DNA of 64,000 bases from a virus. Its lineage: Duplodnaviria; Caudoviricetes. How positions within the stretch are numbered: position 1 is the first letter of the stretch; the number at the start of each line of letters is the position of its first letter. The stretch is taken from the IMG/VR virus record IMGVR_UViG_3300027833_000011; one strand, given 5' to 3'. Positions 3,573 through 62,835 of the stretch are shown one piece after another. The position numbers and the translations under genes are program-made. Under the pieces are notes generated by a model, which was not told where the DNA came from, ran no database searches, and was given only the letters and a program-made list of their open reading frames with translations.

Positions 3573-3776
3573 ATGTTTTGGGTTAGTATGTATTTGATTG
3601 TTGGTACCATATTTATGGCGTACTTAGATTATTCCTTAAAAGATATGGAAGAATGGTCTGATGAAGAACCGATTAAGTTTTCTAACACTGACAGGGTCAA
3701 AATCATAGGTTTATGGCCAATTTCTATTTGCGTTTATATTTATAGTATAATAAAGACAATTAAAGAATCGGATTAA
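3573..3776 (+). CDS. small membrane protein
   Basis: Two hydrophobic segments; LWP motif. Confidence 0.7.
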   Translation: MFWVSMYLIVGTIFMAYLDYSLKDMEEWSDEEPIKFSNTDRVKIIGLWPISICVYIYSIIKTIKESD

Positions 3777-3777
3777 T

Positions 3778-4986
3778 ATGGCATCTAAGGTAATTAAATT
3801 GACAGAGTCAGACCTTAAACTTATTGTGAGTAATATTTTAAAGGAACAACAAGAAAAAGTGTATAGTGATTATGACACTAAATATGATTATAAAGTGTCT
3901 AAAGGTAATTGGGTTGCGAGTAAAAAAGGTGAAAATAAATGGTTCTCCCTTTCAAAGTATCCTAAATCAATTATTAAATTAGATAGTGCATATCCTAAGG
4001 CACGTAAATCTATATCTGACAAAACATCTATTTCAAAAGATACATCTATTTCAAAAGATAAACCCACTAACAATAGTGTTTTTAAATCAAAGGAAGAGGG
4101 TGATGTATTTAGAGGATGGATGAATAAATATTACCCCAAAACCTCAAAAAAGTTACAGTTAGACATTACAGGTAAGTTCGATAATAGTTATATTAGAAAG
4201 GCGTTAAACAGTAAAGTTAAACGTAAAGATGGTAGTATAACTACCTTTGGGGTGTTATATGCTGAAAAACACTTAAAAAAGACTGACCCTTCTTCATTTG
4301 ACAGAGTCTTAGACCTAATAGGTTGGAATGAAGATAAAGAATCGATTAAGAAGGATAATAACTTTATTTTAACACAACAAATAGATAAGACTAAAGTAGC
4401 TGCAGATACTATTAAGGTTAATAATATATCACAATCTAAAAAAGTGTCCGACATTATGAGTTACGATAAAGATGATTGTGCCACTTTTGTTAATGACTTT
4501 ACTACAACAGTAGGGACCGTCGGTGATGCGTGGTTATCACATGACATAGACGCAGCCGGTAAAAGAGTACACTCAATTTATACCAAAATTGATAACAACG
4601 ATGTTAAAAAATATAAGGACTTATATCAAAGGTTATTAAAGGGTGAATCCGTTGTGTCAGATATTAAATCATTCAACGAGGAACTACTACAAAAAGGCCC
4701 TAAACCAACAGACTTAAAACTTAATGATATTGTTGGTATTTACTACGAACCTTCAACAAACCATGAGAAAGCGTTTAAAAACGCGGGTAATGATTATTTC
4801 GTGGATGGTGACCCTAAACAACCTGGTACAGTTTTAAAAGGTGGTAGAGGATTCTCATTCAATACTCACGTAGGTATTGTAGGTGCATTTAAAAACGGAA
4901 CACCTATAGTCTTCCATAATGTGCACGGTACAATATATTCGGAACCGGCAAATAAGTTATCCATTACTTGGGTAAAAAGAACATAG
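3778..4986 (+). CDS. putative virion-associated NlpC/P60/CHAP-like amidase
   Basis: N-terminal KVIKLTESDL...ILKEQ tag; C-terminal DCATFV ... HVGIV ... IVFHN (Cys-His-His arrangement). Confidence 0.6.
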   Translation: MASKVIKLTESDLKLIVSNILKEQQEKVYSDYDTKYDYKVSKGNWVASKKGENKWFSLSKYPKSIIKLDSAYPKARKSISDKTSISKDTSISKDKPTNNSVFKSKEEGDVFRGWMNKYYPKTSKKLQLDITGKFDNSYIRKALNSKVKRKDGSITTFGVLYAEKHLKKTDPSSFDRVLDLIGWNEDKESIKKDNNFILTQQIDKTKVAADTIKVNNISQSKKVSDIMSYDKDDCATFVNDFTTTVGTVGDAWLSHDIDAAGKRVHSIYTKIDNNDVKKYKDLYQRLLKGESVVSDIKSFNEELLQKGPKPTDLKLNDIVGIYYEPSTNHEKAFKNAGNDYFVDGDPKQPGTVLKGGRGFSFNTHVGIVGAFKNGTPIVFHNVHGTIYSEPANKLSITWVKRT

Positions 4987-8860: not shown

Positions 8861-8883
8861 ATTAATAAATACATTCGTTTTAT

Positions 8884-8920
8884 AAAAAACGAGACCAGAA
8901 AGTAGCGAACTTCTGGTCTC
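8884..8920 (-). terminator. intrinsic terminator whose loop matches the 23S rRNA GTAGCGAA sequence (antisense)
   Basis: Perfect 10-bp stem GAGACCAGAA/TTCTGGTCTC (8891-8900/8911-8920); the U-tract is on the minus strand. Confidence 0.75.
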
Positions 8921-8966
8921 TATCGCCCATAACTATAGACGGTCCTAAGAGTGGTCTTCAAACCAC
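8891..8966 (-). ncRNA. candidate RNA complementary to 23S rRNA H69-H71
   Basis: Plus strand CCATAACTATAGACGGTCCTAAG vs conserved 23S CCGTAACTATA-ACGGTCCTAAG, plus GTAGCGAA in the hairpin loop. Confidence 0.45.
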
Positions 8967-8975
8967 ACTGTTATT

Positions 8976-9218
8976 TTAACTACTTTTAGCCCCTTTACTA
9001 GATTGTAATATTTCACCAATAGGACCCTTTTCGTTATTTATTAATTCTATAATTTCTTCAGAGTTATAACGTTTACCTCTAAATAGTACTGTACCTTCGT
9101 TTTCAAAATTAAGGTACGCGTCTTTAGACGTTTTAAAATACGAACAGGCTTCGTAGTTTTCACGTTCCTCATTTATCGAAATCATTTCATCGTACCAATC
9201 TATTATCAAGTTTCTCAT
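8976..9218 (-). CDS. small protein with a UVR-like ExYExC motif
   Basis: EERENYEACSYFK. Confidence 0.6.
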   Translation of the reverse strand: MRNLIIDWYDEMISINEERENYEACSYFKTSKDAYLNFENEGTVLFRGKRYNSEEIIELINNEKGPIGEILQSSKGAKSS

Positions 9219-9936: not shown

Positions 9937-10227
9937 ATGACAACAGTTTTAATTATTTTAGCGGTAGTAATTGTGGGGTTCGTGATTTACAAAAAGACAA
10001 AATCGTCAGGAACAACAACTAATACAACAACCAGTAATGTAACTACTAGTACAACACAAGGTGGTGGTGGAAGTAGTTCATCAAATGGTTCAGGAAGTGG
10101 TTCAGGAAGTGGTTCAGGGACAACAACAACAACAACACGAGGTGGTGGTGGAAGTAGTTCATCAAACAACAAAGGTGGCGGCGGAGCCGTACGAGGTTCA
10201 GGTGCCGGTGGAGGTTCTTCCAACTAA
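9937..10227 (+). CDS. membrane-anchored Gly/Ser/Thr-rich protein
   Basis: N-terminal TM helix; 35-bp duplication (10051-10085, 10132-10166) and GGTTCAGGAAGT tandem repeats; followed by a terminator. Confidence 0.75.
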   Translation: MTTVLIILAVVIVGFVIYKKTKSSGTTTNTTTSNVTTSTTQGGGGSSSSNGSGSGSGSGSGTTTTTTRGGGGSSSSNNKGGGGAVRGSGAGGGSSN

Positions 10228-29225: not shown

Positions 29226-30058
29226 GTAAATATAAATCTGAAAAATTAGAAGACTTAATCAAATCCACTAACGATGACACAATAAAGTCAGTGTTATTTA
29301 ATCTAAAATTAGTGCCTACATTCTCTTTAATGATTGAGGCGACGTATCAACCAATACAACAATTTTTAATTGGTGAGTACCCTACTTTAACTTCTGACGA
29401 TATTACTTCTATCGCATTGGCGGCCACATGTTCATTCATTTTTAAATCTTACGATAGAATAAAACAAGGTAGAGAACTTAAGGGATATTTAGAATCTAGA
29501 GATTTAGAGATTAAAGTTGAGGAAACAAAGACTCAACTAACAAAGTTACTTAAGATTGGTTCTAACATATTAAAAGATATGGGTTATAGTGTTGGTACTA
29601 TGTCGGGAATATTAGGTTTCGCATTTATTTTGCAACCACTTATGATGGGGATATCAGAACTTATGGGTCGTAACTCAGATTTTAACATTGACAATATGTT
29701 TAACTACGTAATATTAGGTGTTGCCTTTAAAGGGTCTTTATTTTTAGAGCAGTTTATAACTAAGTTCACTAAAGAGTTTGAAAAAGAACCTAAAATTGGT
29801 CCTAAGGTTAAATGGCCTAAAGAATTTAAATACGGAGAAAAAGAATACGGATTAATTAAACAATCTAAAGATAGGGCGACGTATGAAAATAAAAAAGGTA
29901 AAGGGGATAGACTTACGTTTGGTTCTGAAAAAGAAATGACCGACTATCTTGAAGATTATACGGCTCCTAAAGGTGGTACTCAATCCACACAGTTAGGTGA
30001 TACGTATTTGTCAGAAACTCAACTGAAAAGTTTAATGGATAGTATTATTCTAAAATAA
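29222..30058 (+). CDS. hypothetical protein with a C-terminal LSETQL motif
   Basis: 278-aa ORF. Confidence 0.7.
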   Translation: MSKYKSEKLEDLIKSTNDDTIKSVLFNLKLVPTFSLMIEATYQPIQQFLIGEYPTLTSDDITSIALAATCSFIFKSYDRIKQGRELKGYLESRDLEIKVEETKTQLTKLLKIGSNILKDMGYSVGTMSGILGFAFILQPLMMGISELMGRNSDFNIDNMFNYVILGVAFKGSLFLEQFITKFTKEFEKEPKIGPKVKWPKEFKYGEKEYGLIKQSKDRATYENKKGKGDRLTFGSEKEMTDYLEDYTAPKGGTQSTQLGDTYLSETQLKSLMDSIILK

Positions 30059-40114: not shown

Positions 40115-40531
40115 TGGTGGAGGTGCCGGGTTTCGAACCCGGGTCTTGTTCAGTCCACCTATAAAGGACTACACGTTTAGAACAGTATTTTCTAATACTT
40201 CGAAATTTGTTGGTTATTATTCATCATTGCAACCAACACCCAATGAACGATTCAATTTTGGGTTTAATCGTACTCTACCACACTGCGGACTTCTGTTGCT
40301 AGGTTATGTGTCCTGACCGACCCCATGTAACCGACTCTTAGAGTGGGTTACTGTTAACACGTAGTCTAACTATGCGTTAACGATAGCTTCGTCAGCTACT
40401 AAGCCGAACATTGCCATCTCGTTGTAAACGTTGCCGTCTAAAAAAATTGTCACCGTAGATTAAAGTGATAGGAAACATCTCACTACGTGCCCCGTATAAC
40501 TGACCCTGCCAATCAATTCCAAGTCACCCCC
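40115..40531 (-). ncRNA. ssrA: tmRNA
   Basis: 5' GGGGGTGACTTGGAATTGA; 3' GACCCGGGTTCGAAACCCGGCACCTCCACCA; G3.U70 alanine identity pair; tag ORF 40435-40370 GNVYNEMAMFGLVADEAIVNA*. Confidence 0.92.
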
Positions 40532-47183: not shown

Positions 47184-47204
47184 GATTTCCTCTCTTCCAT
47201 TAAG

Positions 47205-47276
47205 TAGCCCGTAGGGGAATCGAACCCCTCTTACCAGGATGAAAACCTGGCGTCCTAGCCGATAGACGAACGGGCC
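47205..47276 (-). tRNA. tRNA-Glu(TTC)
   Basis: Cloverleaf; CCAGG-TT TTC AT-CCTGG; GGTTCGATTCC; CCA not encoded. Confidence 0.95.
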
Positions 47277-47286
47277 ATAATACTAA

Positions 47287-47733
47287 TTATATCACCACTT
47301 TTAGTCCTACGTTAAGATAGTTTAAACCTCTCCTTATTTGTAAAACTCTACTTGTTAACCAAACTCGTTTGTAGATATAAACATCACCACCATACTGTCC
47401 TAACAATAAACCACTATCGTTGTTTATACGATATAATGGACCTACAGATAATTTAACTTTCCTGATTGGTCTGTATTGATAACTAACAAAACCATACACC
47501 GTACCATTATGCCCTTTACTCATCATATGTAATCCTACAGAGTAGTCATACCAATCTATTGATGTTGCGACACCGTATGCGTGAAAACAACTAATTAATG
47601 AAACAGTTGCGAACACATCCTGATTCACGTCCCAATTTTTAACTTTATAATATGGTGAACAATTCTGTGACCATACCATACTACTTAAAAATAATGTCAA
47701 TAATAATAATCTCCTCTTCATCTTCATCTTCAT
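47287..47733 (-). CDS. signal-peptide protein, beta-barrel-like
   Basis: Signal peptide; alternating hydrophobic strands; ends [10 protein letters not shown]. Confidence 0.6.
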
Positions 47734-47743
47734 CTTCTTTTAG

Positions 47744-47817
47744 CGGTCTGGACGAGATTCGAACTCGCGACCCCATGCGTGACAGGCATGTATTCTAACC
47801 AACTGAACTACCAGACC
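47744..47817 (-). tRNA. tRNA-Asp(GTC)
   Basis: CATGC-CT GTC AC-GCATG; GGTCTGG/CCAGACC acceptor stem. Confidence 0.95.
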
Positions 47818-47820
47818 GTT

Positions 47821-47906
<86 letters not shown>

Positions 47907-47910
47907 TATT

Positions 47911-48165
47911 TTACTCACTATCTTTAGTAACGTATTCATACACTACCCCGATATTCTCCACTTGATGTTCGGCAAATGACTTACCTGATTTAGTATAAAG
48001 TATTTTGGTATCACCAATAACCTCAACCTCATCAACAACTTCAATATCTTTAGTACCGATAGGTATGACGTATTGACTTTGTAACTCATCTAACGTTGTT
48101 GTAACATAGTCATTTAATAAACTATTGTCAAACGTATCGTCGCTATTATCGTAATAATCAGACAT
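47911..48165 (-). CDS. acidic hypothetical protein
   Basis: 84-aa ORF. Confidence 0.6.
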
Positions 48166-48397
48166 TGGTATCGTCTTTTAAATTGAAGTTATCTTCCAAT
48201 TCTTTAATTAATTTTTTAATCTCATCGGTGTTAAGGGTGATATGAGTAAAGAAATCTCCTTGCGCTCTCATTGTTAATTGAAGTTTCATCCCCTCTTTAC
48301 CACCACTGAATCTTGTCAATGACATTTCAGTATTTTCCATTTCATTAGTCTTTTGACTATGAAACTGTCCTTTAAGTGTTTTTAATTCTGTTGACAT
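48158..48397 (-). CDS. hypothetical protein
   Basis: Start reassigned to the ATG at 48397, downstream of the TATCTTTG box at 48424-48431. Confidence 0.65.
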   Translation of the reverse strand: MSTELKTLKGQFHSQKTNEMENTEMSLTRFSGGKEGMKLQLTMRAQGDFFTHITLNTDEIKKLIKELEDNFNLKDDTNV

Positions 48398-48441
48398 AAC
48401 ATTAACTGTTTTTTTGTTCACTACAAAGATAAGACATTTAT

Positions 48442-49095
48442 TTAGATTAGAGATAAGAAATTAAAAGTATTTTCGATAGTACTATAAAGTTGTCCTCTAT
48501 GTTTTAATACTCCACAAATATTATGTAAATCACTGTCTTGAGGATAAAGAGTGATATTGTCAGACGATGACACCCATTCCGCATGTTTAAGGTCAAATTT
48601 ATTGTCTCCGCTATAGATGATAGATATTATCGTGTTAAAATCATTTTTAAATAAAAAGGGTTTTAAGTCTAAATAGTAGTCACTCATTATTCCATTTTTT
48701 TCTAAAATTGGAAATCTAAAGTCATTGAATAGGTCTCTTTTTTTATGTTGTAATAATGTTTGAGGACAGAAGGACAAAGATTTATTTGGGTTACAAAATA
48801 TCGAGTATAATATGGCAGCATAACCACCCATACTAGACCCTAAAAATCCTGAATTTTTATATCCACTAATTATAGTTGTAATGTGCTCTGAAAGTAATTT
48901 AACCGACTCATATCCTTTAACTCCGTTTACATACCAAGAAAGAAGGTCGTCATAAACGTATAAAACATCACAATTATATTTTGTAATTGTTTTACTGAAT
49001 TCTTTAGGGGTTTCACCTAAAACCCTATTAACTCCACTTGAAAAGGTTACTATAATATTTTCATAACCCCTTTTGTCATGATATACAGTATCCAT
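48442..49095 (-). CDS. alpha/beta-hydrolase-fold protein
   Basis: FLGSSMGGYAA nucleophile elbow; PQT; D..D; H. Confidence 0.8.
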   Translation of the reverse strand: MDTVYHDKRGYENIIVTFSSGVNRVLGETPKEFSKTITKYNCDVLYVYDDLLSWYVNGVKGYESVKLLSEHITTIISGYKNSGFLGSSMGGYAAILYSIFCNPNKSLSFCPQTLLQHKKRDLFNDFRFPILEKNGIMSDYYLDLKPFLFKNDFNTIISIIYSGDNKFDLKHAEWVSSSDNITLYPQDSDLHNICGVLKHRGQLYSTIENTFNFLSLI

Positions 49096-49319
49096 TATAG
49101 AGTCTTTTTATACTCTAATATTGTCTTACACTTCTCATACTCCTCTAAGTCTTCAAAATGCTCTAAAAGGGTATCACAGGTGTCTGAGTTTATACCCTCA
49201 GTAGGGTCAAACAACATAAAACTTTCAGTACTCACCATTACATCTTCAACAGTCATGTTTTCAGCTAATATATCATAAGTATTTAACATTGCAATATGTA
49301 ATTCGTGTAGTTCTTTCAT
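49095..49319 (-). CDS. small protein with a UVR-like ExYExC motif
   Basis: FEDLEEYEKCKTI. Confidence 0.65.
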   Translation of the reverse strand: MKELHELHIAMLNTYDILAENMTVEDVMVSTESFMLFDPTEGINSDTCDTLLEHFEDLEEYEKCKTILEYKKTL

Positions 49320-49386
49320 AATGTAAAATTAGTAAAAATAATGAGTATTAACAACTATTGACCGAGGTTTTTTATATGATAAAATT

Positions 49387-49950
49387 TTAATGGATTATTT
49401 TACCCGCACATTCAGTTATTGAATATCTAACACCCTTAGTTACCTTAGTTACTTCGTGTTCTAACCTACCATCGTAAATGATTACCGAACCCTTATCTTT
49501 TGGTGCAATATTACCATCAATAATTAATTCACCACCTTCATAATCCTCAGGACTTGAAAGTTGAATTGTCATAATCCATTGTCTATCAAACCCATTACCA
49601 ACCTCAAGGTCAGTATGTAGAGAATGAAAAGACCCTTCAGTGTACTGAGTAAAATAATGTGGACCCTCAATACCAAAATCTTCTTTGAAGAATAAAGAGA
49701 AAAGACTTTCAATCTTATTTGAAAGATATTTGATTTTGTTTTTAGGTATACCAAAAATAGTAACCTTTCTGAATTTATGAGATAACGAGGTTTTACCATT
49801 GGCTAATGTATCCCATTCATTATGGTATATCTCATAAATTAATGGCGTTTGTTTCCACCTTTTTAATAGAAAATAAATCTCTTTTTCGGTGAAAGAATTT
49901 TTAATGTGGTAAAACCCATTATTTTTAACAATATCAGAAGTATCTATCAT
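49387..49950 (-). CDS. PKHD-type 2OG-Fe(II) oxygenase
   Basis: LHTD, TIQLSSPEDYEGGEL, LEHEV..V.KGVRYS. Confidence 0.9.
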   Translation of the reverse strand: MIDTSDIVKNNGFYHIKNSFTEKEIYFLLKRWKQTPLIYEIYHNEWDTLANGKTSLSHKFRKVTIFGIPKNKIKYLSNKIESLFSLFFKEDFGIEGPHYFTQYTEGSFHSLHTDLEVGNGFDRQWIMTIQLSSPEDYEGGELIIDGNIAPKDKGSVIIYDGRLEHEVTKVTKGVRYSITECAGKIIH

Positions 49951-50013
49951 ACAGATAAATATATCTAGTTTTCTTGTTTAATTCGAACCGACTGAAATAT
50001 GGAGAGATAATAG

Positions 50014-50087
50014 TTACCCGACTAGGACTCGAACCTTCGACCTACTGATTATGAGTCAAGTGCTCTAACCAACTGAGATAAAAGTCC
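50014..50087 (-). pseudogene. chimeric pseudo-tRNA(CAT)
   Basis: The 5' 62 nt nearly match the tRNA at 50606-50679, but the 3' acceptor strand TCGGGTA does not pair with the 5' GGACTTT. Confidence 0.75.
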
Positions 50088-50096
50088 GTAAAAAAA

Positions 50097-50501
50097 AAAG
50101 TGAGTTCTTTGACGTTTTATTTATTATCCGTTAACTACGGATTTTTTATTACTATCTAATTGTCTATAAATATCAGCGACGTGTTCACTCATAATATTTA
50201 CAGTTTTATCAACTCTACTGTCAATATGACGGTAGACTTCATTCATGTTATTTTCACTAACACTATGTAGACTCTCCACATAATCCATTAGCTCTTTTTT
50301 AATCTTTTCAGATTCGTTATACTGATTTTCGTTTTCTCGATTCAGTCGGTTTATTTCCTCTTTTAAGGTCTTTGTTGACATATAATTCACAAACGTACCC
50401 ACAACCATTACTAATACAATGACCGTACATACACCTAAAATAAATGATGTTATTTCCATAATTTCTGTTTTATTTAATTGTTATGTCAAAGAACTCACTT
50501 T
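50097..50501. repeat. perfect 17-bp inverted repeat flanking the ORF at 50124-50459
   Basis: AAAGTGAGTTCTTTGAC (50097-50113) and GTCAAAGAACTCACTTT (50485-50501). Confidence 0.85.
50124..50459 (-). CDS. membrane-anchored coiled-coil protein
   Basis: TM helix; VYRHIDSRVDK. Confidence 0.75.
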   Translation of the reverse strand: MEITSFILGVCTVIVLVMVVGTFVNYMSTKTLKEEINRLNRENENQYNESEKIKKELMDYVESLHSVSENNMNEVYRHIDSRVDKTVNIMSEHVADIYRQLDSNKKSVVNG

Positions 50502-50502
50502 G

Positions 50503-50583
50503 TTGGGAAGGAGGGACTCGAACCCCCAAGCCTTTCGGAACGGATTTACAGTCCGTCGAGCCAACCAATTGCTCAACTTCCCA
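50503..50583 (-). tRNA. tRNA-Tyr(GTA)
   Basis: ACGGA-CT GTA AA-TCCGT; variable arm; TGGGAAG/CTTCCCA acceptor stem. Confidence 0.92.
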
Positions 50584-50605
50584 TTGTTGTGGAAGAACTC
50601 ACTTG

Positions 50606-50679
50606 TGGACCTTGAAGGACTCGAACCTTCGACCTACGCATTATGAGTGCGGTGCTCTAACCAACTGAGCTAAAAGTCC
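50606..50679 (-). tRNA. tRNA(CAT), Ile2 or elongator Met
   Basis: CGCA-CT CAT AA-TGCG; GGACTTT/AAGGTCC acceptor stem; paired first base, so not an initiator. Confidence 0.88.
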
Positions 50680-50788
50680 GTCAATATAGAGAGGTTTTGG
50701 GTGTTTCAGGGTTACAGGATTGCCGACCGTACTACTAACCCTTTTTCAATGATGTCGTGCCTAACTGCGTACTCACCTCTCTAACTTA

Positions 50789-50983
50789 TTATAGATAATA
50801 ATATAATCCAACAACTATTAAAGCGACTATGAAAGAGACACAACCATAACCCATAACCTTATAGTTAGATTCCATTTGTTTAGGGCTTCTACCCTGATTA
50901 CTTCGATATTGTCTAAATTTATCTTTTTCCATATCCCACTCTTTAGTTCTTCCTTTGAAAATATTTGGTTTGTTTTTACTCAT
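50789..50983 (-). CDS. small basic protein with a C-terminal TM helix
   Basis: RQYRSNQGRSPKQ...hydrophobic tail. Confidence 0.7.
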   Translation of the reverse strand: MSKNKPNIFKGRTKEWDMEKDKFRQYRSNQGRSPKQMESNYKVMGYGCVSFIVALIVVGLYYYL

Positions 50984-51004
50984 TTGTGTTTTATTAATAA
51001 TTTG

Positions 51005-51078
51005 TGAACCCGATAGGATTCGAACCTATGACCGTCTCCTTAGAAGGGAGATGCTCTATCCAGCTGAGCTACGAGTCC
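51005..51078 (-). tRNA. tRNA-Arg(TCT)
   Basis: TCTCC-CT TCT AA-GGAGA. Confidence 0.95.
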
Positions 51079-51111
51079 ATTTGTTGGGGGAGTGGTAGTC
51101 TCCCCCTTTAG

Positions 51112-51197
51112 TACCACGGGACGGGCTCGAACCGTCACGGACATTACTGTCCATTGGATTTTAAGTCCAACGTGTCTACCAATTCCACCACCATGGC
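51112..51197 (-). tRNA. tRNA-Leu(TAA)
   Basis: TTGGA-CT TAA AA-TCCAA; variable arm. Confidence 0.93.
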
Positions 51198-51327
51198 ATT
51201 TGATACTAATCTTCCATTAAGCAAATAACGTTTGTAATCTAATACGGTGTAAAGATAAATCAAAATTATCTTAAAACCAAATCTTGAGGTAATTTGGTAA
51301 ATATTTTATATATAATCATAAAACTCA

Positions 51328-51585
51328 CTACTCGTCAAGTGACCTTTGTATTTTTTCTTTAAGGTTATTAACCTTAGAACATAATTCGTATTCTTCTAAA
51401 ATTGTAAGGTCGTTTAATAATGAATCACAAATGTACAAATATAAAATCAAATCATTACCAAACTCAGGAATACTTTTTTTAGATTTAGCAAAATCTATAT
51501 CTTCATCTTGTATTTTAATTATTTCGTCATATAGACCCATAACCTCAATAAAACTAATATTATCCATTACCATATGTTTTTTCAC
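51328..51585 (-). CDS. small protein with a UVR-like ExYExC motif
   Basis: LTILEEYELCSKVNNLK. Confidence 0.65.
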   Translation of the reverse strand: MKKHMVMDNISFIEVMGLYDEIIKIQDEDIDFAKSKKSIPEFGNDLILYLYICDSLLNDLTILEEYELCSKVNNLKEKIQRSLDE

Positions 51586-52849
51586 TATAATAAGTATCTA
51601 CTCCTCTACCAACAACAGTTGTTTTACAATTTAAAGTACTTATAAACCTTTCAAACTTAACCATTCGTTCTTTTTCAGAATAAAACAAATTAAAATAATC
51701 TGTTGAGAAAATATTAGAAATATTAATTAGATTATTGTTACCATTTAAACGATGTAGACAATTAAGTGGGTCATTAATAATATCAGTTTTAATTATTTCG
51801 ATGTTTAACGTCCTAAATTTTTCGAGTAACTTTTTAAAATTACCAACTCCTCCGTAAAACGAATACACTTCCTCTGATAGACGTATTAAGTCGTTCGAAG
51901 GAATCCCATCGATACTTAGTTTTTCGATTGTCTTACCTATTAACCTAACACCTTCGGGTTTATTTATCACTAAGTCTGTTATGGTTAACTCTTCAGAGTT
52001 AATAACATAATTAATCCATTCAATACTACTAGAACTAAAGTCAAAAAAGACAATTTTACTCTTATCGTGTATTAAATTACTGTGTAATAAATCTAAAAAT
52101 TTAAAACCAGCACACGGTAAGGCAACAACATCATAAGTTAAGTTAGTTTTCTCTTTCATAAAACTAATTTCTTCCGTGTTAAATAACCATGTCTTATCGG
52201 GTGAGTTTAATAATGGATATAATAATAATCTTTTTGTGTAATCAATTTCATCACTATATTGTTTATTATCAATTAAATTAAAGAATTTATCCGAGTTATA
52301 TTCAGGATAACAATATGCCTTTGACCCACGTATGTCATCATTAAAAGGGATAATATTATAATCGTTTAGTAAAAAACTATTTATAAAAGACCATCCCCTG
52401 TCTAAAGTATTATATTCACTATATTGGATTGGTTTCTCTAATCTCACCCAGTGTGGTGTATAATCATCATGTATGTTACTTTCTGACCTAACAATGTTAA
52501 CTATAGACTCTGAACTGTCCTCTTTATTTCCATATGTTGGACGACCAATATTTACCCATTTCTTATAGTCAAAAACTATAAACTGAGGGTGTAGTTCATA
52601 CCATTGGTCTTTACGGTCTAATATATGACCCATTAATCCTAATGATGGGTCATCAATAAACGGTTGTAAAACTGTATCTAAAAATTGATTGGTGTGGTAT
52701 ATACGATTACCCGATGAAATGATAAACACATAGTCAGTATCGGTGAGTTGACTCAACCCGTCATCAATAGTTTTACATTCTATAACATCTAAAACGTACT
52801 GTTTTTGTTGTGATAAACGTTTTAGATAAAACTGAGTAAATTCCCTCAT
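51560..52849 (-). CDS. large hypothetical protein (start uncertain, 52849 or 52927)
   Basis: About 430-aa ORF; GHILDR...ELHPQF, HDDYTP and DUF115-like GFKFLD segments. Confidence 0.7.
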   Translation of the reverse strand: MREFTQFYLKRLSQQKQYVLDVIECKTIDDGLSQLTDTDYVFIISSGNRIYHTNQFLDTVLQPFIDDPSLGLMGHILDRKDQWYELHPQFIVFDYKKWVNIGRPTYGNKEDSSESIVNIVRSESNIHDDYTPHWVRLEKPIQYSEYNTLDRGWSFINSFLLNDYNIIPFNDDIRGSKAYCYPEYNSDKFFNLIDNKQYSDEIDYTKRLLLYPLLNSPDKTWLFNTEEISFMKEKTNLTYDVVALPCAGFKFLDLLHSNLIHDKSKIVFFDFSSSSIEWINYVINSEELTITDLVINKPEGVRLIGKTIEKLSIDGIPSNDLIRLSEEVYSFYGGVGNFKKLLEKFRTLNIEIIKTDIINDPLNCLHRLNGNNNLINISNIFSTDYFNLFYSEKERMVKFERFISTLNCKTTVVGRGVDTYYSEKTYGNG

Positions 52850-52904
52850 TCTACGTTCTAAAAATATGTTAGGGATATGTGTCGATATATGTAAAATTGT
52901 AATT

Positions 52905-53114
52905 TTAAATCCCAAGACTATTATCAAAATTTAAAGTTCTTATTAAAGATTGTGAGCAAGAATGTGCGTTAATTAACCATGTTTTCTGAGGGGTAGGTAA
53001 ATCCTGTAAATCTCCTTCTAATACGATTCCGTTTTTAGATATGGTATAAACCCCTTCAGATAATTCAATATCAAACCCTTCGATATTAATTTTTATTTCT
53101 CTTTGACTTTGCAA
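52905..53114 (-). CDS. hypothetical protein
   Basis: 69-aa ORF. Confidence 0.55.
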   Translation of the reverse strand: MQSQREIKINIEGFDIELSEGVYTISKNGIVLEGDLQDLPTPQKTWLINAHSCSQSLIRTLNFDNSLGI

Positions 53115-53322
53115 GTTTTCTCTCTTTTCTTAATTTCTTATCAGATAGTCCTCTGTGTTCAACATTGACAGTTTCAGAAGAATCCTTTGACATCTTAACC
53201 TTTTTAGTTTTTCTGTATTCAGATTTTGGACAAAAAAACCAAGAACCACTATTAACTAACATATTTGCGGTTGAGTCATCGACTCTTTTAACCGTACCTT
53301 CATTGTTTTTAACTGTTTTCAT
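53086..53322 (-). CDS. small basic protein
   Basis: VKRVDD..A...V.SG.W.FCPKSEY; K/R-rich tail. Confidence 0.7.
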   Translation of the reverse strand: MKTVKNNEGTVKRVDDSTANMLVNSGSWFFCPKSEYRKTKKVKMSKDSSETVNVEHRGLSDKKLRKERKLAKSKRNKN

Positions 53323-53451
53323 AAATCATGAGTTTTAAAAAAACCCTCTCAGTTGAAAGGGTTTTATTTTATTGTGCTCCACCATCAATTTTTTTATAAG
53401 GTTTGAAACCTTTGGGTCGACTAGTTTTAAAACAGGTCTATTTTAATTATA

Positions 53452-54294
53452 CTACAAATCAAATCGATTTTCAAGGGTAAGTTTAACATTATCTAAATGA
53501 ATGTCATATTCTTCTTCAGTGAAAAGCCAATCAGGAAATCCAACGGAACCACTGTTGGGTGAGACTACCTGAACTAAATCGTTATTATATTTTAAGTATA
53601 TTGCCTTTTCATCGATATCTTTTAAATTGGTCATTCTATCAACCATAGTGTTCATAATAGTATTAATGTTGTTTCTATGTTGAAAACCTAAAAGATGTAG
53701 GAATTCGTGTTTAATTAATAAATCATTATACTCTCTAACCCAAAAGCTACCCTCACCTATAGAACATAGGTCAGGATTTACGATATCACTATTAGTATCA
53801 GAAAGCCATTCTTCATTTTTAAACGTCGCCTCACCCAACCTATCAGGATTAGGTACTATATTAAGTAACGATTGATAAACATCTGGACCAAACACAATTG
53901 TTATGTCAGCATCGTCAATGTTATTCACCACATTGAATTTGATGTTTTCATCTTCAATGATACCATCTAAGACCGAAAAGAAGTTTATTAATTCGTTTTT
54001 AGCATTAACATTATTAAACGATTCGTGAAAAAAAACGTCAATTTTTTCTGTACCTTTAAAACCCCCGTGTTTCCATCTAGCCGGTTTTAAATGATAGGTA
54101 TCCCCTTCATAATTAAACTTACCTGTAGAGATTTGTGAATAATGTGTGAGATATGGTTCAATATTTGACTCAGCCTCTATCGAGTCGATTTCACCAAATC
54201 GTAAATATGGTTCTTCCTCACAAGATAATAAAAAAAATATTATCGATAAATATATTATCGAAAGTTTAAGAAAAGTTTTACTATAATCCTTCAT
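53452..54294 (-). CDS. lipoprotein metzincin/matrixin-like peptidase
   Basis: LLSC-EEE; HEFLHLLGFQH; IMN Met-turn. Confidence 0.8.
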   Translation of the reverse strand: MKDYSKTFLKLSIIYLSIIFFLLSCEEEPYLRFGEIDSIEAESNIEPYLTHYSQISTGKFNYEGDTYHLKPARWKHGGFKGTEKIDVFFHESFNNVNAKNELINFFSVLDGIIEDENIKFNVVNNIDDADITIVFGPDVYQSLLNIVPNPDRLGEATFKNEEWLSDTNSDIVNPDLCSIGEGSFWVREYNDLLIKHEFLHLLGFQHRNNINTIMNTMVDRMTNLKDIDEKAIYLKYNNDLVQVVSPNSGSVGFPDWLFTEEEYDIHLDNVKLTLENRFDL

Positions 54295-54361
54295 AGTTAT
54301 TTATATTTTAAAATTAGAAGACAAAGATAGTAAATTTAATATTTATATAAAAGAAAAATCC

Positions 54362-54589
54362 ATGAATAAAAAAAAATACCCATACACCTCTTTTATTTGT
54401 GGAGGGTTTTTGGGTCTTATTTTTTTAGGTAAAGTAAATTCTGTGGTTATGGTTCTCTTAGTGGAGCATAGTACTCTAACAATGAAAATGCTTTATGGTA
54501 TTAATAGTATTTTTAAAATATTAATAGTTTCACAAATAATAGGATATGTTTATGGAATGATTTTAATTTCCATAAAAAAGAAAGGTTAA
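54362..54589 (+). CDS. small membrane protein
   Basis: Two hydrophobic segments; TATTTATA at 54340. Confidence 0.5.
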   Translation: MNKKKYPYTSFICGGFLGLIFLGKVNSVVMVLLVEHSTLTMKMLYGINSIFKILIVSQIIGYVYGMILISIKKKG

Positions 54590-55269
54590 CCACCTAACAT
54601 ATTTAATCTCATTTCAATAGATTTAATGGAGTTAATTCGACTATTCATTTCCGTAAACACTTCCTTATCTAGTTTAGCGCTAACAACATTAATATTATTA
54701 CGTAAGTTAGTAACTTCTGTTGTTAGATTTTCTATTTTTTGTGACAGTCCCATTAAAGAATCTGAAGACGGATTTGTTGGGTTTATACCATCGAATCTAC
54801 TTTTTAACTCAGAAACAACAATATTATTTCTTTCATCAAAACTCACTAAATTAGTCGCTAATGATAATACGTCTTTCTCTCTTAAAGTCTTTTCCTCATT
54901 AATTCTAGTTGATAATGAGTGGTCTACTGATGTCAGTTCAGTTGATTTATTTAAAATTTCTGCGGAACATTTTATCTGAATAGAATTATACCCATCCACA
55001 ATTAAACGTTTGACAGGTTCTGTGGTTAATTCTTCAGGCGTTCTTTCTCCAATTGTTGATACTCTAACATTAATACTTTCAACAACATCGTCAAAACTCC
55101 TAAGTTTTTCGGTTAATGAAAAATTATTACCATTAACTTTAGTGTTAATGGTTCTTTTATTGTCGATTATTTCTTGTTCCAATTTCTGAATAACCTCCAC
55201 TAATTTTTTAATGATATTATTTGGGTTTGGTTGTCCTTCTTGGTTTCCTTTATTAAATGTCACTGCCAT
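54586..55269 (-). CDS. coiled-coil protein
   Basis: Heptad-rich 227-aa ORF. Confidence 0.7.
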   Translation of the reverse strand: MAVTFNKGNQEGQPNPNNIIKKLVEVIQKLEQEIIDNKRTINTKVNGNNFSLTEKLRSFDDVVESINVRVSTIGERTPEELTTEPVKRLIVDGYNSIQIKCSAEILNKSTELTSVDHSLSTRINEEKTLREKDVLSLATNLVSFDERNNIVVSELKSRFDGINPTNPSSDSLMGLSQKIENLTTEVTNLRNNINVVSAKLDKEVFTEMNSRINSIKSIEMRLNMLGG

Positions 55270-55337
55270 AATGAGATGTTTTTATAATAATATAAAAAAT
55301 ATTGCATAAAAAAAAGAGGAAACCCTCTTTAATCTAT

Positions 55338-55423
<86 letters not shown>

Positions 55424-55425
55424 TA

Positions 55426-55545
55426 CTAAGATATTCGATACCCGACATACCAAAGGTCTACTCGTATAAACCAATTACCCTTATTTTTACCAAACCCAAT
55501 TCGTAACATTCTATTTTCTGAAGTTAATGGAATTTTAGTAACCAT
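55426..55545 (-). CDS. 39-aa hypothetical miniprotein
   Basis: [39 protein letters not shown], translated by hand. Confidence 0.55.
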
Positions 55546-55546
55546 A

Positions 55547-55696
55547 TTAAATTGCTCTGTTTCGTCTGCGATTGTCCCAAGCCACTTTTTTCGTGCTCCC
55601 TAACATTCTTAGTCTTAATACTTTACTGTTGAATGTTTCTCGGACACTATTTAATTGTGTGTTACCGTTCGATTGTTGATTTGATTCCATTGTCAT
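55547..55696 (-). CDS. 49-aa basic miniprotein
   Basis: MTMESNQQSNGNTQLN...WDNRRRNRAI; stops 1 nt before the next ATG. Confidence 0.6.
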   Translation of the reverse strand: MTMESNQQSNGNTQLNSVRETFNSKVLRLRMLGSTKKVAWDNRRRNRAI

Positions 55697-55712
55697 TGTT
55701 ACTTTTTTATTG

Positions 55713-55785
55713 AGCCTCTTGCCAGACTTGAACTGACGACCTGCTGATTACAAATCAGCTGCTCTACCAGCTGAGCTAAAGAGGC
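55713..55785 (-). tRNA. tRNA-Thr(TGT)
   Basis: GCTGA-TT TGT AA-TCAGC; GCCTCTT/AAGAGGC acceptor stem. Confidence 0.95.
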
Positions 55786-60807: not shown

Positions 60808-62835
60808 TTACTTTTTTTCTGTAACTGAAATTTTTTCAGAATCCTTATTAATTTTAAGTGAGTATTTTTTACCCTCAACAATTCCTTTACCTAAAACTTC
60901 TTCTGCAATAAAGTCTTCAATATACTCTTGAATTGCTCTACGTATTGGTCTTGCTCCATATTTAGCATCAAACCCTTTGTCTGCTATAAAGTCAATGATT
61001 GATGGTCCAAAGCTAATATTGTATCCTCTTTCTACAATTCTCTTTGAGAGTTTATTCATTTCAATCTTAACGATTTTACCAATGTTTTCTTTCTCTAACG
61101 ATTTGAAGACAACGATATCATCTAAACGGTTTAGGAATTCAGGTGAGAACTCTGCTTTTAGTGCTTTTTGAATAACACCTTTAGTAAGTTCTTCATGTTG
61201 TGAAACGGTGGAGTCTGTACTAAATCCTAATCCCGTTCCGAAGTCTTGTAGTTTTCGTGCTCCGACATTAGAAGTCATAATAATTAAAGTGTTCTTAAAG
61301 TTAATCTTACGACCTAAACCATCTGTTAAGTGTCCTTCATCTAATACTTGAAGTAGAATATTAAAGACATCTCTATGTGCTTTCTCAATCTCATCGAAAA
61401 GTATAACAGAGTAAGGTTTGTTTTTAACTTGTTCGGTTAATTGACCACCTTCGTCATGTCCTACGTATCCTGGAGGAGACCCTACTAACCTAGAAACTGA
61501 GTGTTTTTCCATTAACTCAGACATGTCCACACGAATCATTGCTGATTCATCACCAAAGATTTCACGAGCCAATGTTTTTGCTAAGTGAGTTTTACCAACA
61601 CCTGTTGACCCTAAGAAGATAAAAGAACCGATTGGTCTATTAGGTTCTTTAATGCCCACACGATTTCTACGAATTGCTTTAGAAATTTTAGTAACGGCAT
61701 TGTCTTGTCCGATTACGTTAGCCTTTAAGGTTTTTTCTAAGTTAAGTAATGACTTAGCTTCATCACTATCTAAACGAGTTACAGGAATGTTAGTCATATC
61801 TGAAACGATTTTATAAACATCATCTTCAGTAATTAAGGTTCTGTTTTCGTTTTGTTTTTGTTCCCACTCCTCTTTCTCAGTAGTTAACTTATTAATTAAC
61901 TTTTTTTCTTGGTCTCTTAGTTCTGCAGCAATTTCATAGTTTTGTGTCTTAACAACATCTAACTTTTTTCTTTTAATTTCGGCAACTTGTAGTTTAAGGT
62001 CTTCAATAAATTCAGGTAATTTAACATCTATTTGTGCCTTTGCACCTACCTCATCTAAGATATCGATAGCCTTGTCAGGTAATTCACGGTCGGTAATATA
62101 CCTATCAGATAAAGTAACACACGCCTTTAATGATTCTTCACTATACTTAACCTTGTGGTGGTTCTCATATTTAGATTTGATATTAGAAAGTATAATCATT
62201 GTTTCCTCAGTTGTCGCAGGGTCAACCAATACTTTTTGGAAACGTCTTTCTAATGCCCCATCTTTTTCAATATTCTCACGATACTCATCTAAGGTAGTCG
62301 CACCAATACATTGTATTTCACCACGAGATAACGCTGGTTTAATGATGTTTGAAGCATCTAACGAACCTGAAGAATTACCCGTTCCAATAATGGTATGTAT
62401 TTCGTCAATGAAGACTACTACATTATCATTATCAACTAACTCTTCTAAAATAGCCTTAAGTCTTTCTTCAAACTGTCCACGGTATTTAGTACCCGCAACA
62501 ACAGAAGTTAAGTCTAACGAAACAATACGTTTATCCGCTAAGTTTTTAGGACAGTCTCCTTGATGTATTTTTATAGCCAACCCTTCAACGATAGCGGTTT
62601 TACCCGAACCAGGTTCACCGATAACAATTGGGTTATTCTTTTTACGACGAGATAAAATCTGTGCAATTCTATTAATTTCTTTCTCTCTACCAATCACAGG
62701 GTCAAGTTTTCCTTGTTCTGCCAATTTGATTAAGTCACGAGAGAAATTATCTAACACGGGTGTTCTCGAATCGTTTTTACTTTTCTTCATTGGAAGTCTT
62801 CGACCTCCACCTTGTTCTTCAAATTCTGTATCCAT
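60808..62835 (-). CDS. clpC: ClpC-type AAA+ unfoldase lacking the N-terminal domain
   Basis: GEPGSGKT and GSTGVGKT Walker A motifs, IDE/FDE Walker B motifs, UVR segment QNYEIAAELRD; starts at TPVLDNF. Confidence 0.93.
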   Translation of the reverse strand: MDTEFEEQGGGRRLPMKKSKNDSRTPVLDNFSRDLIKLAEQGKLDPVIGREKEINRIAQILSRRKKNNPIVIGEPGSGKTAIVEGLAIKIHQGDCPKNLADKRIVSLDLTSVVAGTKYRGQFEERLKAILEELVDNDNVVVFIDEIHTIIGTGNSSGSLDASNIIKPALSRGEIQCIGATTLDEYRENIEKDGALERRFQKVLVDPATTEETMIILSNIKSKYENHHKVKYSEESLKACVTLSDRYITDRELPDKAIDILDEVGAKAQIDVKLPEFIEDLKLQVAEIKRKKLDVVKTQNYEIAAELRDQEKKLINKLTTEKEEWEQKQNENRTLITEDDVYKIVSDMTNIPVTRLDSDEAKSLLNLEKTLKANVIGQDNAVTKISKAIRRNRVGIKEPNRPIGSFIFLGSTGVGKTHLAKTLAREIFGDESAMIRVDMSELMEKHSVSRLVGSPPGYVGHDEGGQLTEQVKNKPYSVILFDEIEKAHRDVFNILLQVLDEGHLTDGLGRKINFKNTLIIMTSNVGARKLQDFGTGLGFSTDSTVSQHEELTKGVIQKALKAEFSPEFLNRLDDIVVFKSLEKENIGKIVKIEMNKLSKRIVERGYNISFGPSIIDFIADKGFDAKYGARPIRRAIQEYIEDFIAEEVLGKGIVEGKKYSLKINKDSEKISVTEKK

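Follow-up and report, generated by a model that had tools for sequence, protein, structure and literature searches.

Invariant bases of a phage-specific RNA family at transcript 3' ends are complementary to helix 69 and the adjoining strand of 23S rRNA

The DNA stretch analyzed here, referred to as the window, comprises 64,000 nt of a virus of the Caudoviricetes (IMG/VR record IMGVR_UViG_3300027833_000011). Its minus strand contains a small open reading frame (ORF) at 8976-9218, whose product of 80 amino acids has no family match and is 98% identical in a single close relative. Behind this ORF, at 8878-8974 on the same strand, lies the structured RNA module that is the subject of this work. 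Read along the minus strand, the module of about 90 bases consists of the upstream gene's stop codon, then hairpin A, the unpaired stretch (C/U)UUAGGA, hairpin B with UAGUU, a short spacer, a terminator hairpin and a U tract. The window copy scores 81.9 bits with our covariance model R1, in whose seed alignment it was included.

In the window the stop codon occupies 8976-8978, about 9 nt ahead of hairpin A (8951-8966), which has a 5-bp stem, GUGGU/ACCAC, and the loop UUGAAG. It is followed by block 1, CUUAGGACCG (8940-8949), the reverse complement of positions 1920-1929 of 23S ribosomal RNA (rRNA). Hairpin B (8924-8942), termed the 'anti-H69' hairpin after helix 69 (H69) of 23S rRNA, carries block 2, UAUAGUUA (8930-8937), the reverse complement of 23S 1911-1918. 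The hairpin deviates from the family consensus CCGUUAUAGUUAACGG by one extra C and one G.U pair. The intrinsic terminator hairpin (8891-8920) has a 10-bp stem and a 10-nt loop (8901-8910) that displays block 3, UUCGCUAC (8902-8909), the reverse complement of 23S 1930-1937. It is followed by the U tract (8884-8889), which appears as a run of A on the plus strand. All of these elements are read from the minus strand. A terminator scan calls the hairpin at 8920..8891 of this strand and counts 11 pairs with GUUUUUU behind them; all members of the family described below have the same layout.

An earlier note, made from the letters of the window without database searches, had drawn attention to the plus-strand stretch 8927-8949, CCATAACTATAGACGGTCCTAAG, as a near copy of the 23S sequence CCGTAACTATAACGGTCCTAAG. 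The two indeed agree at 21 positions and differ by a single G>A change and a single inserted G. As had also been noticed there, a perfect 10-bp hairpin (8891-8900 with 8911-8920) has the octamer GTAGCGAA (8902-8909) in its loop, where it takes up eight of ten positions. The note had placed this terminator on the minus strand, 3' of the ORF at 8976-9218, and both statements hold: the A run at 8884-8889 is a U tract only there, and the call of the scan is on that strand. The complementarity had been described as extending over helices 69 to 71. It covers 23S 1908-1937, that is, H69 and the strand towards H70, but H71 is not reached. The G>A change is particular to the lineage of the window and also gives a G.U pair within the RNA's own hairpin B.

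Taken alone, the match of the window copy is not significant. When the whole window was compared with the E. coli 23S sequence (blastn-short), it had E = 9.1 and was tied with many exact 12-13-mers. Its significance results from the fact that the window copy belongs to a large, conserved phage RNA family without an Rfam match. The rRNA-like blocks, on whose conservation in relatives the earlier note had made its proposal depend, are kept in distant relatives. A 23-base pattern with two blocks in the same permuted order matched 34 IMG/VR contigs, and all 34 share the layout, with terminator stems that differ in sequence but compensate. The loop octamer is present in 33/33 viral contigs with the hairpin B word. 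A looser word pattern matched at least 120 viral contigs of IMG/VR and at least 120 metagenome contigs; the metagenome matches listed include marine contigs (TARA, GOS-type) as well as many JGI and ENA records.

In the bacterial genomes searched, the module was not found. The looser word pattern had no match in 185,579 species genomes (one genome per species), and the covariance model had none in 151 Flavobacteriaceae genomes. The first pattern gave 43 matches in the species genomes. These are genuine 23S genes, in which the loop of H68 happens to read GTAGCGAAG, and not the module. No family of Rfam 15 matches the locus; for the window copy and one relative (L006) only chance-level matches were obtained (E >= 0.2, far below gathering).

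A sample independent of the element was assembled through the upstream gene of relatives, which encodes the alpha subunit of ribonucleotide reductase (RNR; Pfam). From the 80 loci fetched in this way, 55 distinct regions downstream of RNR were obtained. The module is present in 46 of them, and the other nine contain a plain terminator or have no spacer. Among isolate phages no real match was found when the locus and that of one relative were compared by blastn with 50,697 phage records. Judged by RNR, the nearest isolates are the Flavobacterium phages immuto and MaF61 and the Cellulophaga phage phi14:2 (47-59% amino-acid identity). In immuto and MaF61 only 11-28 nt separate the RNR alpha gene from the next gene, which leaves no room for a module.

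Exactly one copy was found with the covariance model in each of five contigs of 92-176 kb. CheckV estimates these contigs to be 28-61% complete, and those of 140-176 kb to be 45-61% complete; the genomes are therefore probably jumbo-sized, and much of the family probably resides in jumbo phages. Carriers of the module are often very large (G002-G005), and IMG/VR contigs of up to 464 kb are among them (e.g. L190, L204 and L214). A second match of model R1 in the window (29922-29996, minus strand) is weak and partial (E = 0.12). It consists of a hairpin A look-alike and CUUUAGGAGCCG, has no terminator behind it and is probably due to chance. The module is thus a widespread, phage-specific family of structured RNAs at the 3' end of transcripts.

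Covariation was computed on a model-guided alignment of 54 distinct sequences. In this alignment 91% of the cells are paired, compared with 71% in shuffled alignments, and the covariation score is 0.517 compared with 0.173 in shuffles and at most 0.156 with slid partners. Both sides have changed in 17 of the 20 pairs. All three stems covary, including all five pairs of the hairpin A helix and all ten pairs of the terminator stem, for which compensatory changes had been proposed as a check in the earlier note. G.U pairs are found in all three helices; at one pair of hairpin B, for instance, 12 distinct sequences have G.U. Since these pairs would be A.C mismatches on the opposite strand, the folded strand is the gene-sense strand, i.e. 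the minus strand in the window, in agreement with the original assignment. The U tract and both flanking genes are also on the minus strand.

In the RNR lineages, hairpin B reads CCG-nn-AUAGUU-nn-CGG. The terminator stem comprises 9-10 bp and closes an invariant UUCGCUACU loop, with the overall loop pattern (G/A)(U/A)UCGCUACU, and a U tract follows. A further interaction is indicated between hairpin A and the linker behind it. The first base of the linker (C or U) covaries with a G or A of the hairpin A loop (GAAG or GAAA), with 39 C-G, 33 U-A, 14 C-A (three of these mis-scored) and 3 U-G combinations (Fisher P = 4e-10, uncorrected for relatedness). Both states and an intermediate occur inside one close subfamily. 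A 3-bp pseudoknot between the hairpin A loop and the linker is therefore likely. In the window, AAG of the loop (8956-8958) would probably pair with CUU at 8947-8949.

The stems vary freely, and the conserved bases fall on those that are complementary to rRNA. All 20 invariant alignment columns are located within the three blocks. With a threshold of at least 90% conservation, 26 of 34 columns are in the blocks, and the other eight are stem or U-tract positions and one A in the loop of hairpin A. The blocks (CUUAGGACCG, UAGUU and UUCGCUAC(U)) are the reverse complement of 23S 1908-1929 and 1930-1937, which comprise the loop of H69 and the mostly unpaired strand after it. In the family they face 23S 1920-1929, 1912-1917 (with CGG opposite 1908-1910) and 1930-1937. 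UUAGG and CCG of block 1 are invariant, and so is the display of the octamer in the terminator loop, to which the earlier note had pointed. The positions opposite A1918 and A1919 vary as covarying pairs of hairpin B. At the level of sequence the module thus resembles an rRNA-directed antisense RNA, with its conserved bases complementary to a defined rRNA segment (1908-1929 and 1930-1937). Hairpin A has no consistent rRNA complementarity, and the five large phage contigs contain no sense copy besides the module itself.

Where the sequence departs from antisense 23S depends on the subfamily. An extra C and a U opposite G1910 are found in the window, an extra A in the consensus of the RNR lineages, and in one subfamily a G lies opposite U1917 while the match is extended to 1906-1909. 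Distant members in contexts other than RNR pair the middle part of the module differently: UAG pairs with CUA in some, others have a CGGGA/UCCCG stem, and in further ones CUUAGGA is located in a loop closed by ACGG/CCGU. All subfamilies nevertheless retain UUAGGACCG-N3-4-UAGUU and the loop UUCGCUACU, although the partner strand of hairpin B differs. Selection therefore acts on the primary sequence and not on shape alone.

On the ribosomal side, the Rfam consensus of the large-subunit rRNA assigns 1906-1924 to H69, with the loop at 1912-1918, and a lone pair to C1925-G1929. Positions 1912-1918, 1926-1928, 1930-1934 and 1936-1944 are outside helices. The displayed parts of the phage RNA hence lie opposite segments of domain IV that are not fixed in long helices. 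Block-wise duplexes are predicted to have energies of -27 to -38 kcal/mol with 1905-1931 and of -12 to -14 kcal/mol with 1926-1938. E. coli and a member of the Flavobacteriaceae have the same target sequence in their 23S rRNA.

The genes in front of the module are diverse. Among the listed matches of the pattern search, which is not biased towards RNR, and with at least 2 kb of upstream sequence, RNR alpha precedes 47 of 68 viral and 24 of 58 metagenome modules. The remaining upstream genes are unrelated to each other (T5orf172, a DNA methylase, HAD phosphatases, amidases and many ORFans) and have no clear functional theme. An RNR gene is absent from the window and from its 97%-identical relative of 92 kb. 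The downstream gene was considered as a regulated partner and rejected, since downstream genes are diverse. In one contig (L210) two copies are found about 785 nt apart and flank small inserted ORFs. In another (L091), copies at 3580-3675 and 4108-4184 surround small inserted ORFs, the second consisting only of the terminator with its invariant loop. These duplications suggest cassette insertion by recombination at the module. Two short motifs recur at its borders (e.g. in L204, L273 and L088): (U)AAGAUA or UAAAG, 0-10 nt upstream of hairpin A and often including the upstream stop codon, and a sigma-70-like pair TGAAAC ... TATAAT, often 5-40 nt downstream of the U tract.

We propose, with a probability of about one half, that the module at the mRNA 3' end docks on domain IV of 23S rRNA by base pairing. 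This proposal, which is drawn from sequence comparison, is based on four observations: the conserved bases are the complementary ones, they are displayed in loops and linkers, no other target was seen for them in the five large contigs, and the module is restricted to phages. The unpaired stretch and the terminator loop may serve as seeds on the mostly unpaired strand 1925-1937, and UAGUU may pair with the loop of H69. The form recognized would be the free 50S subunit or 23S rRNA in nascent or late pre-50S particles; the location of the region at the subunit interface makes free and late pre-50S particles plausible targets. Candidate effects are a block of subunit joining or of late 50S maturation, tethering of a 50S subunit to the mRNA, or exposure of the rRNA to nucleases. 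A peptide nucleic acid (PNA) directed against H69 inhibits growth of E. coli (Kulik et al. 2017, as cited in PMC7038079), and the site is consequently reachable by antisense agents. This agent shares the antisense relation to H69 with the module but is an artificial short oligomer, whereas the module is a natural folded RNA with additional seeds.

Several points weigh against docking. The complementarity is interrupted, and opposite A1918 and A1919 about one half of the distinct sequences have mismatches, since these positions form covarying pairs of hairpin B. In some subfamilies UAG of block 2 lies in a stem. For CUU of block 1, pairing with the loop of hairpin A is probable, so that the alternation of C and U opposite G1929 is not clean evidence of wobble pairing with rRNA. 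Since block 3 does not follow the antisense order, separate local helices would be needed instead of one duplex. In mature ribosomes the target region is located at the subunit interface. Moreover, pairing with the loop would be weakened by the pseudouridines at U1911, U1915 and U1917 and by the N3-methylation of 1915, which comes late, on the 70S ribosome. Finally, any single transcript is far outnumbered by ribosomes, and the phage itself requires ribosomes. This stoichiometry argues against a global block of mature ribosomes and favors capture in cis of one 50S subunit per transcript or the much rarer nascent 23S rRNA as the target.

A more far-reaching version of docking, which we regard as doubtful, is a phage device that attacks or steers host large subunits for the benefit of DNA synthesis. 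Subunits would be held apart, or an RNase E entry site would be exposed, and the ribonucleotides of the rRNA would feed RNR. In E. coli, breakdown of 23S rRNA begins with a cut by RNase E after residue 1942 (PMC4931109), which is 5-6 nt past the last 23S base complementary to the module. Pairing of a small RNA (sRNA) can direct RNase E to a point about six bases downstream of the paired site (PMC3469820). The speculation is founded on this adjacency, on the sRNA precedent and on RNR as the commonest neighbor, which would be co-transcribed with the module in most lineages.

Tentatively, the module may instead be a structured RNA of the 3' end in which the conserved bases are needed for the tertiary fold of the module itself or for binding of a phage or host protein or another ligand, with the likeness to rRNA being a matter of ancestry. 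Transcript stabilization, processing or controlled termination are possible roles of such an RNA. The three covarying helices and the probable pseudoknot point to a compact fold, block 2 is partly buried in stems in some subfamilies, and one copy per phage contig, always at a gene end, is in accordance with this explanation. However, it does not account for the fact that every invariant base complements one contiguous rRNA stretch of 30 nt, nor for the departures of the subfamilies from antisense 23S at differing positions while the rest is kept. Capture of an rDNA fragment would not have shifted the octamer into a terminator loop, and a match to an Rfam family is missing.

It is unlikely that the module is a mobile terminator cassette, or a terminator and promoter cassette, that is spread by recombination and whose sequence acts as a point of homology only. 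Such an element would resemble the promoter early stem-loops (PeSLs) described in T4-type phages (PMC2839356, PMC4122927), which are portable terminator modules between unrelated genes and whose duplicates flank inserted ORFs. The occurrence of the same module behind genes as unrelated as RNR alpha, T5orf172, a DNA methylase, HAD phosphatases, amidases and ORFans fits this explanation, and so do the paired copies in L210 and L091. Homology would, however, keep the stems as well, whereas the stems covary freely around loops and a linker that are invariant across lineages with RNR proteins about 80% identical. PeSLs are defined by homology and repeated many times per genome, unlike the one or two modules per contig, and the complementarity to rRNA would have no reason. 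A cassette can be reconciled with docking on the ribosome; it explains the spread of the module but not its pattern of constraint.

The three remaining explanations are each contradicted by the tests. It is very improbable that the plus strand is functional, as an imitation of 23S H69 and its flank that would act as decoy for an enzyme or toxin recognizing this part of the rRNA. The plus strand does carry the rRNA-sense sequence including an H69-like hairpin, but there the G.U pairs of all three helices turn into A.C mismatches. All flanking genes and the U tract belong to the opposite strand, conservation does not extend to the inner pairs of the H69-like stem, and the octamer is permuted relative to rRNA.

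Still less credit can be given to a role at the DNA level, be it as a site that serves an I-CeuI-like homing endonuclease as target or decoy or as what is left of an insertion site for a group I intron. Two blocks jointly spell the region of the 27-bp I-CeuI site, a T5orf172 gene is located upstream in two contexts, and RNR genes are hot spots for homing elements. Yet the site, to which the earlier note had also pointed, turned out not to be informative: its two halves are permuted and lie 15-20 bp apart, and its inner positions vary. Furthermore, the covariation obeys the rules of RNA pairing including G.U, no gene for an endonuclease accompanies the module consistently, and the blocks run in the reverse order of a group I internal guide sequence, in which the complement of the 3' exon precedes that of the 5' exon, as seen in the natural guide of L042. 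A likeness by chance, for which the E value of the window copy against a single 23S sequence could be quoted, is negligible in view of about 26 bases that are invariant throughout the family and all complementary to one rRNA stretch of 30 nt (4^-26 x about 2x10^7 possible placements in an rRNA operon gives less than 10^-8).

Among other RNA architectures considered, a group I guide, an H/ACA pocket and trans-cleaving ribozyme arms are ruled out by the order of the blocks. A permuted intron-exon arrangement is ruled out by the block order together with the protein-coding genes located where the intron halves would lie. The searched genomes also included 23S genes from metagenome-assembled genomes of Acidobacteriota and Acidimicrobiales (L042, L044, L051, L062 and L073) that are broken directly behind CCTAAGGT or CCTAAGGTAG, with the break in L062 about 10 nt past the pattern match. 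In L042, L051 and L062 the insert begins with the guide-like GGTTCGCTAGCCTTAG. These inserts look like group I introns at the classical site in the L1931 region.

Guide RNAs of the C/D and H/ACA type in archaea and eukaryotes are likewise small RNAs antisense to conserved rRNA, including the heavily modified H69 region. The alignments of the module contain neither a conserved box C, RUGAUGA, with box D, CUGA, nor an ACA box 3 nt from the 3' end with a pseudouridylation pocket; the module ends in a U tract instead, and its guide segments are in an order that does not fit. We know of no C/D or H/ACA partner proteins in bacteria or phages.

With sRNAs of bacteria and phages that are derived from 3' untranslated regions or act as antisense RNAs (e.g. 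of the MicC type with seed and terminator, PMC3469820), the module has in common the location at the mRNA 3' end, the shared intrinsic terminator and short conserved unpaired or loop seeds between covarying stems. Because it shares the mRNA 3' end and terminator and has a conserved unpaired seed, it may be regarded as a candidate member of this class. It differs in that its complement is 23S rRNA and not an mRNA, and in that it has three seeds, one of them in the terminator loop and out of antisense order. The TURBS elements of caliciviruses and influenza B virus (PMC3035654, PMC2793014, PMC11921876) are also viral structured RNAs next to a stop codon with a conserved unpaired motif complementary to rRNA. 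They pair with the small-subunit 18S rRNA, are located upstream of the stop codon and drive reinitiation, while the module is located downstream of the stop codon, includes a terminator and matches bacterial large-subunit rRNA. Ribosome-associated noncoding RNAs such as yeast rancRNA_18 at the 60S subunit's E-site region (PMC8632108, PMC8938821) are small mRNA-derived RNAs on the large subunit, as is proposed for the module. In contrast, rancRNA_18 has 18 nt, is cellular and is not defined by long rRNA complementarity. Searches of full-text literature, also with the motif words, yielded no description of a phage or bacterial RNA with conserved 23S complementarity.

Other features of the window include a full-length gene for transfer-messenger RNA (tmRNA) at 40115-40531 on the minus strand, with 80 bits in Rfam; ARAGORN did not report a tmRNA. 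Nine tRNA genes (Glu, Asp, two Ser, Tyr, Met, Arg, Leu and Thr) are located within 47204-55785, also on the minus strand. An ORF of 675 amino acids (60808-62835, minus strand) has a strong match to the FtsH-like ATP-dependent proteases (phrog_4871, E = 2e-245), which are unusual phage cargo. Just past the gene neighboring the module, a plus-strand ORF of 96 amino acids (9937-10227) combines a hydrophobic start with long runs of Thr, Ser and Gly of low complexity. Most other large ORFs of the window have no family match.

Phages reach the ribosome via proteins, tRNAs and tmRNA. H69 forms the intersubunit bridge B2a and cannot easily mutate, so that an RNA aimed at it would have a target from which the host cannot escape. 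If the pairing does not take place, the module would still define a new family of structured RNAs, abundant and well supported, in aquatic phages of partly jumbo size, and its sequence constraint would call for another explanation. If it does, the family would represent a new class of phage-ribosome interaction and the first phage RNA of this sort. It may then also offer a natural starting point for antisense inhibitors of H69 and serve to probe late 50S assembly or ribosome turnover in infection.
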